Source: an uncultured Candidatus Saccharibacteria bacterium
GTDB taxonomy: Bacteria; Patescibacteriota; WWE3; UBA101185; UBA10185
Direction of reading: 5' to 3'
NCBI GenBank assembly: GCA_964574405.1
Contig: CAZNNN010000002.1
Location: forward strand, 1-56,219
DNA: 56,219 nucleotides
The notes beneath the pieces were generated by a model. That model saw nothing but the letters and a program-made list of their open reading frames with translations, made no database searches and had not been told where the DNA came from. The position numbers and the translations under genes were made by a program. Of this stretch, positions 25,441 to 44,103 are shown in pieces; position 1 is the first letter of the stretch, and each line of letters opens with the position of its first letter.

Positions 25441-26598
25441 TTACAAAAAGGATCTTATGGGGGTTGAGACAAGCATGTCCTTATAATCACCTACTTGTGC
25501 CCTTTTCTTCTTGTGCTCACAAACCACGGATACAATAAAATCAGTAACAAGTGCCTTTAGCTCCCCACCTGTTAATTTTCCACTCTTGTAATCTTCGTAA
25601 GTTTTTTTTACCAAAGTATTATCAGCACAATGAAAATTCAGTAAGCTAAAAACAGGACAAATCTCAGGTATGGCACCAAGATCTCTGTGTACCGAAAGCA
25701 AGGAGACCGACCCTGTGTAAGCTTTTGTGATCTTGGTTTTTATAGTATCCGCATCATCGGTTAAATAAATCGCGGTCTCTGGTTTAGAACCCGACATTTT
25801 TTCCAGAGGGTTTTTGAGGCTGGGTTGAAATTTAAAAACCATCTCGGAAGGAGGTATAAAACCTGTTTTCTTTGCTATATCTCTTGATAGAAGCAGATAT
25901 GGGTGCTGATCTATTCCCACAGGTATGAGTGTGTCTCTTTTCCCCCCAAATTCTGGCAATTGTGGCATAAGTATTTGGGCTAACTGGACTGCTGCCCTGT
26001 AAAAAATCTTGCCTGAATTGTCCAAAGAATCCTCACCAAATATCGATTTTAAATATCCCATGTCCACATACTTACTTAGGTACATTGCAAAATTGTATAT
26101 ATCCGGATAGTCCGAAAGCACATAAAATCTTGTGCGTTCCCTTTTCAATCCAAGGGCTAGAATACTTGGTATTATTTCTCCGTAGCCAATCCTGCGACTG
26201 TCTGCAATACTGGAAACTTTTGAATCAATGTATGACTCGTCACTAGTAATGGGAATGTACACAAATGCCCCTAAGGTTTGTAAATACGAAAGAAGATCAA
26301 ACAAAACCTTGTGTCCAAAGTGTAACGGAGAGGATGGATTGAGCCCCGAAACAACAGTAAAATCCTGCCCTTTTGCCAGGTAAGAGGAGATGTTTTCAAA
26401 ACCCAAATGGGCAAAAACCATATCTCGATCAAAGTGAAAATCCAAAACGCCATAATAAGCCTTTAAATATCTCTTAACTCTGGAAAAGTCCTCTAAACCC
26501 AAATCCTCTATCTTTTTTGAGTATTGTTGAAGTAACAGCTCTTTGAGACCCTTCTTGCTCTCATATTCCCTTATTGCCAATTTTTCATTATCTGTCAT
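25441..26598 (-). CDS. trpS: Tryptophanyl-tRNA synthetase, archaeal/eukaryotic type
   Basis: GLNPSSPLHFGH (HIGH-type) and KMSGSKPETAIYLTDDADTIKTKITKAYTGS (KMSAS-type). AGGAG lies 5-6 nt upstream of ATG 26598; the ORF-track start at 26625 is probably too far upstream. Confidence 0.8.
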   Translation of the reverse strand: MTDNEKLAIREYESKKGLKELLLQQYSKKIEDLGLEDFSRVKRYLKAYYGVLDFHFDRDMVFAHLGFENISSYLAKGQDFTVVSGLNPSSPLHFGHKVLFDLLSYLQTLGAFVYIPITSDESYIDSKVSSIADSRRIGYGEIIPSILALGLKRERTRFYVLSDYPDIYNFAMYLSKYVDMGYLKSIFGEDSLDNSGKIFYRAAVQLAQILMPQLPEFGGKRDTLIPVGIDQHPYLLLSRDIAKKTGFIPPSEMVFKFQPSLKNPLEKMSGSKPETAIYLTDDADTIKTKITKAYTGSVSLLSVHRDLGAIPEICPVFSLLNFHCADNTLVKKTYEDYKSGKLTGGELKALVTDFIVSVVCEHKKKRAQVGDYKDMLVSTPIRSFL

Positions 26599-26605
26599 AT
26601 ATCTC

Positions 26606-27610
26606 CTATAATTCCAACGGTTCAAAAATGTACTTCTGAACCAACCTAATTACATCATTTCCCGAAGGCAAGTTAAAGTTGCTTTCGTTGGCAAGAAGTC
26701 CAAGGTCTTTGGTAATCAGTGCTTTTGCTAGCAAACCGGTTAAATATAACTCCCTAACGGCATTAGGAAGAGTAATATCTGCTGGACAGAACGAGCTTTT
26801 AATAAGCTCTTCAATCTGGTTTAGACTTGTCTTACCCAGGACGACTCTAAAATTCTGTAATTTATTACTACCAGCCTTATATGGGGTTAGACCGTATTTT
26901 TCAACTTCCGGATGTTTAAGAAGATAATCAAACTGAAGACCTAAAGGATAGGTGGGTTTAAGGTAAAAACCTTGCAATGGCAGGCGCTTGAGGCTTTTCC
27001 TAACAATATTTGCCATTCTGTCGTAATTGATCTCGCGCTTAGGACCTACTTTTATATCATAACCGGTTATGAGGGCAACTTCTTCTAGCGAATATTGAAA
27101 CTCCGCCTCACTTTCCTGCTTTAGTTTATTTTTTAGAACGGTCTTTTCTGCCAAATCAGCCATCTCGTGGCTTTCGCTAAAAACTCGCCTAACATTCGCC
27201 AGCGCTTCCTTAAAAGTTGAGGTCTCGAATAAATCGCTCATCCGTTCAAATTTTAGTGCCGTGCGGTATGTCGCACAAATTTTTGACTGCATTTCTGTGT
27301 TTTTACTGATCTGTTTTTTCACACCTTCTTCATCAACGCTTTTATTTCTCACAGAGGCAACATCACCAACAATCACCGTGCCGGCGGTCTTTGTGCCAGT
27401 CTCCGCTAATAACGAATTTAGGACAGAAAGAAAAAAGTAGTATTTTAGAGAATCAATCGTCAACCCAAAAGTATCGTAAGTTTCGCCGTAAACTAATTTA
27501 AAATCTGTAACCCTGCCTATTTCCAGCATCGAATCTTTAATGGGCAACAGGCTATCATCCACAAAATAGGCTCTAAGATTATCTAGTATTTGTTTGTTTA
27601 TATTGGTCAT
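26606..27610 (-). CDS. Hypothetical 334-aa protein between tRNA-Trp and trpS
   Basis: No recognisable motif. The ORF-track N-terminus (27611-27694) reads through the tRNA-Trp gene, so the start is set at MTNINKQ. Confidence 0.6.
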   Translation of the reverse strand: MTNINKQILDNLRAYFVDDSLLPIKDSMLEIGRVTDFKLVYGETYDTFGLTIDSLKYYFFLSVLNSLLAETGTKTAGTVIVGDVASVRNKSVDEEGVKKQISKNTEMQSKICATYRTALKFERMSDLFETSTFKEALANVRRVFSESHEMADLAEKTVLKNKLKQESEAEFQYSLEEVALITGYDIKVGPKREINYDRMANIVRKSLKRLPLQGFYLKPTYPLGLQFDYLLKHPEVEKYGLTPYKAGSNKLQNFRVVLGKTSLNQIEELIKSSFCPADITLPNAVRELYLTGLLAKALITKDLGLLANESNFNLPSGNDVIRLVQKYIFEPLEL

Positions 27611-27615
27611 AGTTT

Positions 27616-27690
27616 TGGTGAGTGGGACAAGAATCGAACTTGTGTTTCTCGTTTTGGAGACGAGAGTTCTAGCCGCTGAACTACCCACTC
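27616..27690 (-). tRNA. tRNA-Trp (anticodon CCA)
   Basis: The reverse complement folds as GAGTGGG TA GTTC AGCGGCTA GAAC T CTCGT CTCCAAA ACGAG AAAC ACAAG TTCGATT CTTGT CCCACTC A CCA. Confidence 0.9.
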
Positions 27691-27695
27691 GCACC

Positions 27696-28010
27696 CTATT
27701 TGTTATAAAAAGGAGGTATGTAGGAAAGACGCTCTTTTAGAATCTTAAAACGCCCTTCTTGTAGCTCCTTTGAACCTCTAGTGACCGTAGCAACCCCCAC
27801 GGAAAGATCTTGAGCTATATTGTGGTGCGACTCCCCTTTTAGTAACCTTGACACTATTTCAAGCCTTAAGGGCAACTCTTGCAACTCTTTCACGGTTAAC
27901 AAACCTACCAGAAAATCCTCCATAGTGGCGCTATCCCCTATGTCCATGAGGACGCTTAGAAGATGCTCAAAATATTTATTTTTATAGATATTGTCTGGTC
28001 TTTTTTTCAT
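27696..28010 (-). CDS. Trp-repressor family protein (TrpR / YerC-YecD-like)
   Basis: LLTVKELQELPLRLEIVSRLLKGESHHNIAQDLSVGVATVTRGSKEL aligns with E. coli TrpR [47 protein letters not shown]. Confidence 0.85.
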   Translation of the reverse strand: MKKRPDNIYKNKYFEHLLSVLMDIGDSATMEDFLVGLLTVKELQELPLRLEIVSRLLKGESHHNIAQDLSVGVATVTRGSKELQEGRFKILKERLSYIPPFYNK

Positions 28011-28025
28011 GCCATTTCTCTTCCT

Positions 28026-28043
28026 GTACTAGTACGCTAGTAT
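28026..28043. promoter_or_regulatory. TrpR-type operator GTACTAGTACGCTAGTAT (CTAG-N4-CTAG)
   Basis: 14 of 18 positions are identical to the symmetric E. coli trp operator GTACTAGTTAACTAGTAC. It overlaps the -10 element and the expected transcription start. Confidence 0.6.
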
Positions 28044-28070
28044 TATACATGGGTATAACGAGTTTGTCAA
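28042..28070 (-). promoter_or_regulatory. Perfect consensus sigma70 promoter TTGACA-17-TATAAT
   Basis: On the minus strand, TTGACA is at 28070-28065 and TATAAT at 28047-28042. Confidence 0.65.
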
Positions 28071-29089
28071 ATGTAGTGCGTGGCTCTTCCGTTCCCTACC
28101 CTCTTTATCAAGCTCATCTCCAAAAGTTTTTTAAAGTCTAATGCGCGGGTAGCTTTGGCTCTAGGGGTTAGCTTTGAATATTGCGCGTCAGTTATAAAAC
28201 CGTGTTTTGAGACATAGTCAAGAAGCAATTTCTCATAAGGCTTTATAGTATTTGCAGGACTAGTACTAACCGTTTCCAACTCGCCCTTTACACGCAATAA
28301 CTCATCTACAACGCCATCGGTGAAGTACTCTAGCCACTGTGTAAAATCAAGCTTTTCGTAAATTTCGTAGTAGTCTCCTAAAACTCCTACTTTTTCAAAA
28401 TATTTGGAAACATTTTTGTTGTAATAATTTTCAAAACTAAACAGATTAAAGGTATCCAGCCCCATTCTTGCCAGTATTACTTTGGTAAGTAATCTAGTGG
28501 TTCGTCCATTCCCGTCCATAAAAGGGTGAATAACCACAAACTGCTTGTGAAAAATACCTGCCAGTATTAACGGGTCTAAAATTTGTTCGTTTTTAGTAAC
28601 AAAGGCGAGAAGGTCTGCTATCAAATTGAGTACATCTTGGTGTTGGGGAGCGAAATAGGCAATAACTCGCGTGGCTGGATTATTAACCACCTCGGAAACC
28701 TTTCTAAAACTGCCACAATTAAAATCGGCTACTAAATCTTTGGTTACAATCTTGTGAACATTCAAGACAAGCTTTTGATCTATTTCCAAAGTTTCGTTTT
28801 TTATCAAAGGGTTAAGCTTCTCTAAAGCCTGATTATAGTTTAAGACCTCCCTTTCACTATCTCTTAAATGCTGGGGGCTGGTTTTTAAAATCCTTCTTAC
28901 TTCCAATAACGGTAACGGATTACCTTCGATTCGCGTGGATGAGTGGGAGGATGACGCCTTGGCAGTTTTTTCCAGTTCCGCCAGCACAATTTGAGGAAAT
29001 TTTTTGTTGTTAAGCTCTGCAGTAATAACTGCCACCCTTTTGATATTTTCTATTATTTTAGGGGTTACCTCGTACTTTGGATTAAACAT
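28067..29089 (-). CDS. Fic-domain protein (AMPylase family) with a C-terminal winged-helix domain
   Basis: HPFMDGNGRTTRLL (HPFxDGNGRxxR) plus the N-terminal inhibitory motif STRIEGN ((S/T)xxxE(G/N)). Confidence 0.9.
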   Translation of the reverse strand: MFNPKYEVTPKIIENIKRVAVITAELNNKKFPQIVLAELEKTAKASSSHSSTRIEGNPLPLLEVRRILKTSPQHLRDSEREVLNYNQALEKLNPLIKNETLEIDQKLVLNVHKIVTKDLVADFNCGSFRKVSEVVNNPATRVIAYFAPQHQDVLNLIADLLAFVTKNEQILDPLILAGIFHKQFVVIHPFMDGNGRTTRLLTKVILARMGLDTFNLFSFENYYNKNVSKYFEKVGVLGDYYEIYEKLDFTQWLEYFTDGVVDELLRVKGELETVSTSPANTIKPYEKLLLDYVSKHGFITDAQYSKLTPRAKATRALDFKKLLEMSLIKRVGNGRATHYI

Positions 29090-43926: not shown

Positions 43927-44103
43927 AGGTAACTTATACCACCCCACTTTGTTTTTGTCAAGCAGCTTTACTTTTGTCAAAAGGAACTACTCTCATCAAA
44001 CTACTTTACTAGTACCAACCCACTTTACTTTTCAAATTCACCTTTGGTTTTGTCAAAAAGAAGTATTGTTGATTTATTCGTTTGTACAAGGTATAAAATC
44101 AAC

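Follow-up and report, generated by a model that had tools for sequence, protein, structure and literature searches.

What does a tryptophan repressor control in a bacterium of the Candidate Phyla Radiation (CPR), for whose uncultured members almost no transcriptional regulation has been characterised? The question is raised by a 56,219-nucleotide (nt) stretch of a WWE3 genome (contig CAZNNN010000002.1, positions 1 to 56,219; this whole stretch is called the window below), in which a gene for a 104-amino-acid (aa) TrpR homologue lies behind a consensus promoter and a TrpR-type operator, and ahead of a tRNA-Trp gene, a gene (X) for a paralogue with the aminoacyl-tRNA synthetase (aaRS) fold and a gene for tryptophanyl-tRNA synthetase (TrpRS). 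From the order of genes and from comparison with other genomes, trpR, tRNA-Trp, X and TrpRS probably form an autoregulated, TrpR-controlled operon. TrpR is known from textbooks as a repressor of genes for making and importing tryptophan; here, in a host lineage with reduced metabolism, it would apparently serve the use of tryptophan in translation instead. A literature search returned nothing on TrpR in CPR/Patescibacteria or on TrpR control of trpS. New here are the downstream genes (for a tRNA, a paralogue of aaRS fold and TrpRS) as cargo of a TrpR system, and the CPR host, the protein-operator pair itself being of the E. coli type; the 104-aa protein, the 18-bp operator and the consensus promoter offer testable material.

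Promoter and operator upstream of trpR

The features of the locus are collected in Table 1. A predicted sigma-70-type promoter precedes trpR, with 12/12 hexamer positions and a 17-nt spacer, and with TTGACA and TAnnAT kept in orthologous loci. In the promoter scan it was the sole 12/12 site between 23000 and 31000, and the exact arrangement TTGACA-17-TATAAT is found once in the window (at up to one mismatch, 2 found versus 0.52 expected), which upholds the perfect consensus promoter described in the initial annotation. Reading of the minus strand likewise confirmed the coordinates and spacer length given there, the 31 nt between the -10 hexamer and the trpR ATG (28010), and the geometry of the operator, as follows. 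The 18-mer ATACTAGCGTACTAGTAC, whose first two bases are the last two bases of the -10 hexamer and which reads GTACTAGTACGCTAGTAT on the plus strand, has perfectly symmetric arms (TACTAG and CTAGTA), with 8 bp from the centre of one CTAG core to that of the other. It is identical at 14 of 18 positions to GTACTAGTTAACTAGTAC, the DNA of the TrpR-operator crystal structure PDB 1tro according to the listing in PMC2504314.

Table 1. Positions of the promoter, operator and genes of the trpR locus in the window
Feature	Position	Strand	Evidence
-35 hexamer TTGACA	28065-28070	-	strand reading and promoter scan
Spacer, 17 nt, AACTCGTTATACCCATG	between TTGACA and TATAAT	-	strand reading
-10 hexamer TATAAT	28042-28047	-	strand reading and promoter scan
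Predicted TrpR-type operator ATACTAGCGTACTAGTAC (minus-strand reading)	28026-28043		palindrome, footprint, recurrence
Purine-rich Shine-Dalgarno-like tract AGGAAGAG, 7 nt before ATG	28018-28025	-	strand reading
trpR homologue, 104 aa	27696-28010	-	PF01371 match
tRNA-Trp, anticodon CCA, discriminator A73, encoded 3' CCA	27616-27690	-	ARAGORN; Rfam tRNA 67.9 bits
Gene X, 334 aa, class Ic aaRS fold (TyrRS/TrpRS-like)	26606-27610	-	AlphaFold2 and Foldseek
TrpRS, archaeal/eukaryotic-like type	25441-26598	-	PF00579 116 bits; TIGR00233

Counting 7 nt from the -10 hexamer places the predicted transcription start at about 28034/28035, that is, at the centre of the operator, which would then span about -8 to +10. 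The leader of about 25 nt appears unstructured (for the 46-nt leader region the folding energy is -0.6 kcal/mol, not lower than that of shuffled sequences), and one orthologous locus (L005) has GGAGG at the position of the Shine-Dalgarno-like tract.

Conservation of the operator in CPR genomes

A search gave proteins with 78-96% identity to the TrpR of the window, and five loci were used for the orthologue comparison (L001-L005; TrpR 78-81% identical, three distinct sequences, L001-L003 encoding the same protein). Every one of these that extends far enough shows the order trpR, tRNA-Trp, X, TrpRS. When their upstream regions were aligned with that of the window, only an invariant TTGACA, a TAnnAT -10 element (TATTAT or TACAAT at the equivalent place in the orthologues) and ATACTAGCGTACTAGTA(C/T) were kept (the operator variant of L004 being ATACTATCATACTAGTAC), and the rest had diverged. 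This conservation of TTGACA, TAnnAT and operator amid diverged flanks is a classical phylogenetic footprint.

Eighty further trpR loci, more distant than the five orthologues, came from species-representative genomes. They are nearly all from CPR genomes (Saccharibacteria, Levyi-, Roizman-, Dojkabacteria, Peregrini- and Gracilibacteria), with some metagenome-assembled genomes labelled Gammaproteobacteria. TACTAG-N4-CTAGTA was found no more than about 40 nt ahead of the trpR start codon, as an exact match in 47 of the 80 loci and with one mismatch in another 19; conservation in orthologous loci, which the initial annotation had proposed to check, therefore holds for the five orthologues and for 66 of the 80 distant CPR trpR loci. 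Elsewhere in the 613 kb scanned, about four further sites were found at up to one mismatch, at least two of which actually lie upstream of trpR and had been missed by the coordinate filter. An exact TTGACA is present in most of the CPR trpR loci.

The operator follows the -35 element in discrete registers of 3, 6-7, 10-11 or 22 nt, so placed that it fills the spacer, encloses the -10 element (TATACT, in the middle of the operator) or lies behind it. It overlaps the core promoter in every register, which fits repression by occlusion. The window clade has the 22-nt register, with the operator immediately after the -10 element, and the same register is seen in all trpR genes that lead a tRNA-Trp/X/TrpRS series (L086, L091, L093, L094, L099, L100, L104, L133 and L134); in these trpR-led series the operator is usually a fuller palindrome, GTACTAG-N4-CTAGTAC.

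Upstream of trpR in four loci (L009, L031, L035 and L041), three CTAG cores are arranged at 8-bp spacing, for example in TACTAGCATGCTAGTATACTAGTA. Tandem binding of TrpR is known from the E. coli trp operator, which these three-core sites resemble.

The palindrome could also be a chance occurrence or a non-regulatory site, such as a leftover restriction-type site (ACTAGT is the SpeI sequence), and CTAG-N4-CTAG by itself would allow this, being expected 0.38 times per window and found once, a difference that is not significant. The 12 specified bases of TACTAG-N4-CTAGTA, however, have a single occurrence in the window and none in 100 shuffles; the site is kept where its flanks have diverged, and it recurs before trpR in several CPR phyla and almost nowhere else. 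Footprint and recurrence together effectively refute this explanation, which is extremely improbable.

Downstream genes and the probable transcriptional unit

The four genes are consecutive on the minus strand, with 5 nt between the trpR stop codon and tRNA-Trp, 5 nt between tRNA-Trp and the X start, and 7 nt between X and TrpRS. The tRNA-Trp gene is found in the equivalent position in L001-L005, L086 and other loci. A73 is the archaeal/eukaryotic identity element of tRNA-Trp, bacterial tRNA-Trp having G73, and its presence fits the archaeal-type TrpRS of the same operon. That enzyme scored 204 bits with TIGR00233 trpS (cut-off 176.75), its best models being of the archaeal type (PRK12285), and its translation shows the motifs HFGH and KMSGS. 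The ATG at 26598 was retained as its start: the mechanical open reading frame (ORF) start, TTG at 26625, would overlap the end of X, and the orthologues align from 26598.

Gene X gave no Pfam and no NCBIfam match. At least 246 homologues were found, all of them unnamed CPR proteins, and the window X is 50-55% identical to its orthologues. Its AlphaFold2 (AF2) model (predicted local distance difference test, pLDDT, 89.3; predicted template modelling score, pTM, 0.90) has the Rossmann catalytic domain and C-terminal helical domain of class Ic aaRS, with no PF00579 match, and Foldseek aligned it over its whole length with archaeal/eukaryotic TyrRS and TrpRS (E ~1e-9, template modelling (TM) score ~0.6, 12-16% identity). 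A profile comparison between the X family and the window TrpRS gave no signal, and homology of X to aaRS is therefore proposed on the basis of the fold. By eye, H-x-G-H (HIGH) was not seen in the conserved N-terminal block YGETYDxxGLTIDS, and the invariant K-A-G-S-N may stand for KMSKS, as judged by eye without structural superposition.

No sigma-70-like site of at least 9/12 was detected between the operator and TrpRS (26625-28040, minus strand), including the interior of trpR, nor was a convincing terminator found in that interval, where the region 27616-28040 holds only weak sites in coding sequence. The Rfam scan of the window returned tRNAs only, with no T-box, Trp leader or other element. 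Neither a T-box nor a leader-peptide attenuator is present in the window leader, which has no leader peptide and no terminator; a leader of about 25 nt would hold neither of these. The four genes are presumably co-transcribed. No trpA-E/G homologue was found by homology search in the 56-kb window; the short gaps, the lack of a detectable internal promoter and the synteny also support the targets given in the initial annotation, tRNA-Trp and TrpRS rather than tryptophan biosynthesis, a list to which the aaRS-fold paralogue X has to be added as the fourth gene of the operon.

Upstream of trpR lies a gene for a Fic-domain protein (28067-29089, minus strand), whose TGA stop codon (28069-28067) is part of the -35 hexamer that precedes trpR. 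Orthologous loci have another upstream neighbour (HTH_17 + CYTH), and the juxtaposition of Fic and trpR is therefore recent.

The tRNA-Trp/X/TrpRS module in other genomes

In three contexts that were looked up, the end of X overlaps by 4 nt the gene for a TrpRS of about 385 aa, which follows directly. Another 80 loci came from a search of metagenomes with X; tRNA-Trp lies directly before X in most of those that reach far enough upstream, and TrpRS directly behind X in most of those that reach far enough downstream. In 16 loci trpR precedes tRNA-Trp, and the operator is present wherever the contig reaches far enough.

Two other types of leader were found before the module. About 18 distinct trpR-less loci have a T-box-like arrangement, in which AAGGTGGTACCGCC precedes a terminator hairpin with a T-run that stops 6-35 nt short of tRNA-Trp (L140:1054-1290, L096, L101, L102, L106, L107, L109-L111, L117, L125, L137, L138, L142, L145, L147 and L089). 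The L140 leader matched the Rfam T-box model at E = 3e-8 and 42 bits (gathering score 93) when a short stretch was searched at an E-value threshold, its Stem I being seemingly truncated. At the gathering score, no T-box and no Trp leader was returned by Rfam for 23 related loci, and for L089, despite its GGTGGCACCG motif, the E-value threshold did not bring out a T-box match either. A T-box ahead of its own cognate tRNA gene is an unusual arrangement.

The second type consists of short leader peptides with WW or WWW followed by a terminator, in six distinct sequences from four groups, for example MKLNISTIWWRESS..., ...SQIWWWNNK... and MKLNVSTSWWQNN... (L088:3730-3860; L113-L115, L119 and L121-L124, 130-200 nt upstream of tRNA-Trp). 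In the predicted fold of the L088 leader an antiterminator competes with the terminator, and a short stretch of it matched Rfam Trp_leader at E = 0.006 (E-value threshold). These leaders are predicted to place a CPR tRNA/synthetase operon under attenuation in the style of the trp operon.

It appears from these leader sequences that control of the module in response to tryptophan has been kept, whereas the sensor differs between genomes. That one module is found with three devices, each reporting tryptophan or the charging of tRNA-Trp, is the strongest indirect argument for tryptophan-responsive control of tRNA-Trp and TrpRS by the promoter-operator of the window, and makes the locus a clear case from nature in which regulatory devices that are not orthologous have replaced one another around a single conserved function. 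More tentatively, the gene order and the leaders could be read as a self-contained, possibly archaeal-derived tryptophan-charging module of Microgenomates-related CPR, induced by starvation, with X as an obligatory partner of TrpRS and with three interchangeable tryptophan sensors (TrpR and its operator, a minimal T-box and a WW-peptide attenuator); X could in that case be a subunit of a heteromeric TrpRS or a tRNA-Trp-dependent enzyme. If true, the window would be the first example of a tRNA gene and a TrpRS system of two proteins under the control of a TrpR repressor.

The TrpR homologue, its probable ligand and the possible extent of its control

The initial annotation had described a trpR homologue with a conserved DNA-reading helix, and profile, fold and motif agree with it. 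The 104-aa protein matched Pfam PF01371 (Trp_repressor) over residues 15-86 with 53.1 bits (cut-off 27), and the profile of its family matched E. coli TrpR structures at E = 1.5e-16, compared with 1e-7 to 1e-8 for YerC-like proteins. The AF2 model of the monomer (pLDDT 87) is built of six helices, and in a Foldseek search against PDB all good matches were TrpR and TrpR-like chains (TM 0.62-0.77). BLASTP gave 43% identity to E. coli TrpR over 47 residues, pairing T39, R49, R78 and G79 of the window protein with T44, R54, R84 and G85. The reading helix V73-A74-T75-V76-T77-R78-G79-S80 corresponds to I79-A80-T81-I82-T83-R84-G85-S86 of E. coli, within the sequence GVATVTRGS, and A-T-x-T-R-G-S is nearly invariant among 26 CPR homologues. 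These matches place the protein in the TrpR family; with a score under the equivalog cut-off (below), it does not count as a certified functional counterpart of E. coli TrpR. Membership of YerC/YecD was considered and rejected (TIGR02531 23.6 bits, cut-off 42.2).

In E. coli TrpR the residues T44, R54, R84 and S88 belong to the tryptophan pocket, R54 and R84 sandwiching the indole ring of the corepressor. Among the 26 homologues, the equivalents of T44, R54, R84 and G85 show little or no variation. Genes downstream of trpR in the CPR loci were clustered and their representatives annotated, considering the uninterrupted same-strand run only (75 loci with a downstream ORF). Tryptophan biosynthesis genes alone were found in this run in 23 loci, TrpRS alone in 20, both in 6 and neither in 26, so that 49 of the 75 trpR-led runs include trp genes and/or TrpRS. 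The annotated proteins comprise TrpE, TrpG, TrpD, TrpC, TrpB-like, TrpA and bacterial-type TrpRS, and operons led by the family include trpEGDC, trpCBA or TrpRS, which ties the CPR TrpR family to tryptophan; in the window locus the tryptophan-linked genes are TrpRS and tRNA-Trp only. The conserved pocket residues and this family-wide context point to L-tryptophan as the probable ligand.

Recurrent in the trpR-led operons of L006-L085, often just before TrpRS, is a protein of the Asp/Glu-racemase family; proteins of about 425, 556 and 138 aa with no Pfam match, BtpA, DUF3182 and PdxS also recur there.

Several points weigh against tryptophan-dependent control of the whole operon. The four central bases of the operator (TACG/CGTA) are asymmetric. 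The protein scored 49.9 bits with NCBIfam TIGR01321 (trp operon repressor equivalog), under the cut-off of 67.25; E. coli S88 is replaced by E82, the Glu being invariant across the CPR TrpR family, and R69 and K72 by H63 and A66, changes that may bring a different ligand affinity and different outer-base contacts. Weak internal promoters under the 9/12 scan threshold are possible, and no terminator was found 3' of TrpRS, which leaves the end of the operon undefined. Read-through from the Fic gene into the trpR operon is also possible, because the Fic stop codon lies in the -35 hexamer and no terminator separates the genes. Finally, a second TrpRS of the bacterial type is encoded just downstream of the archaeal-type enzyme in two relatives (L089:6218-7213 and L088:7269-8732, the L088 enzyme being fused to a tRNA_edit domain), so that the module may be auxiliary and induced by starvation rather than the sole charging system.

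The changes in the pocket bear on the identity of the effector. TrpR could bind this promoter and operator in response to indole, an indole derivative or no effector, in plain autoregulation or under some other signal, and the invariant Glu in place of S88, the score under the equivalog cut-off and the 26 loci with neither tryptophan biosynthesis genes nor TrpRS directly downstream would be in keeping with this, as would PDB entries in which T44/S88 variants of E. coli TrpR accept indole-3-acetic acid. The equivalents of T44, G85 and the indole-sandwiching R54 and R84 are nonetheless invariant, genes of this family stand in operons with trpEGDC, trpCBA or TrpRS, and the same module is found elsewhere under devices that sense the charging of tRNA-Trp, which makes a different effector unlikely.

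Less likely still is an operator that serves mainly trpR, with tRNA-Trp, X and TrpRS transcribed from internal promoters or by read-through and depending only weakly on tryptophan. tRNA genes often have their own promoters, and the scan sees only matches of at least 9/12 to the sigma-70 consensus. An alternative internal promoter downstream of trpR is known for trpBA of Chlamydia (PMC7755916). The 5-nt gaps on both sides of tRNA-Trp, by comparison, leave no intergenic room, and no candidate promoter was detected inside trpR; the same order and the same tight spacing recur in diverged genomes. In trpR-less genomes the T-box-like or attenuator terminator stands right before the tRNA gene, which clearly places the tRNA in the regulated unit there.

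Proposed mechanism

Under TrpR control of the whole operon, the one strong sigma-70-type promoter would give rise to a single transcript of trpR, tRNA-Trp, X and the archaeal-type TrpRS, from which RNase P and 3'-end processing would release tRNA-Trp. A dimer of the TrpR homologue loaded with L-tryptophan would bind TACTAG-N4-CTAGTA, centred on the predicted start, and would exclude RNA polymerase or block the formation of the open complex, repression being the presumed direction of the effect. When free tryptophan falls, the repressor would leave the DNA and more tRNA-Trp, TrpRS and repressor would be made; the added repressor would close a negative feedback loop, and derepression would raise the charging capacity for a scarce amino acid. 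Together with the strong promoter, the feedback loop would keep a substantial basal level of possibly essential genes.

Comparison with known systems

The E. coli trpR gene has an operator of its own that also covers the start site, and TrpR operators are known there for trpEDCBA, aroH and trpR. The window system has in common with it the protein family and fold, the motif of the reading helix, the CTAG-N4-CTAG palindrome, the overlap of operator and core promoter, and autoregulation of the repressor gene, here predicted. It differs in its cargo, which is neither biosynthesis nor transport, in the position of the repressor as first gene of the operon that it would control, in its CPR host and in the replacement of R69, K72 and S88.

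The trpRBA operon of Chlamydia trachomatis also begins with an autorepressed trpR (PMC7755916). Its cargo is tryptophan synthase, for indole salvage, and a 348-bp intergenic region holds a second promoter and an operator for YtgR (PMC7755916), whereas the genes of the window are 5-7 nt apart and encode translation machinery. A close likeness to the chlamydial operon is seen in three Saccharibacteria loci (L057, L058 and L006), with the order trpR-trpC-trpB-trpA.

With the T-box of Firmicutes (trpS and other aaRS genes) the window system would share its outcome, an increase of the charging enzyme in response to a shortage of its amino acid or of the charged tRNA; the T-box is an RNA sensor of uncharged tRNA that acts on termination, whereas in the window initiation would be the regulated step and the free amino acid the signal, read by a protein repressor. 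Attenuation through a leader peptide is known for aaRS genes, namely E. coli pheST and the auxiliary trpRS1 of Streptomyces coelicolor, and is alike in that lack of an amino acid induces the gene of its aaRS. The YerC/YecD proteins of Firmicutes have a similar small helical fold (Foldseek TM 0.73-0.77 to 3frw, 3kor and 3g1c); unlike them, the window protein is nearer to true TrpR by sequence and carries its TRGS motif.

Other observations

Additional operator copies were looked for in the window and rejected, the candidates being sites with two mismatches (3243, 42956 and 43999) at chance level (4 found versus 1.65 expected). A near-consensus promoter, TTGACA-17-TATAAG, was found at 43933-43961 on the minus strand, with the operator-like site 43999-44014 (two mismatches) 38 nt upstream of it; this proximity is probably due to chance, no link with a gene being evident. 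On one of the CPR metagenome contigs with a T-box-like leader (L138), a match to a group I intron was obtained at 148-333 on the minus strand (79.6 bits).

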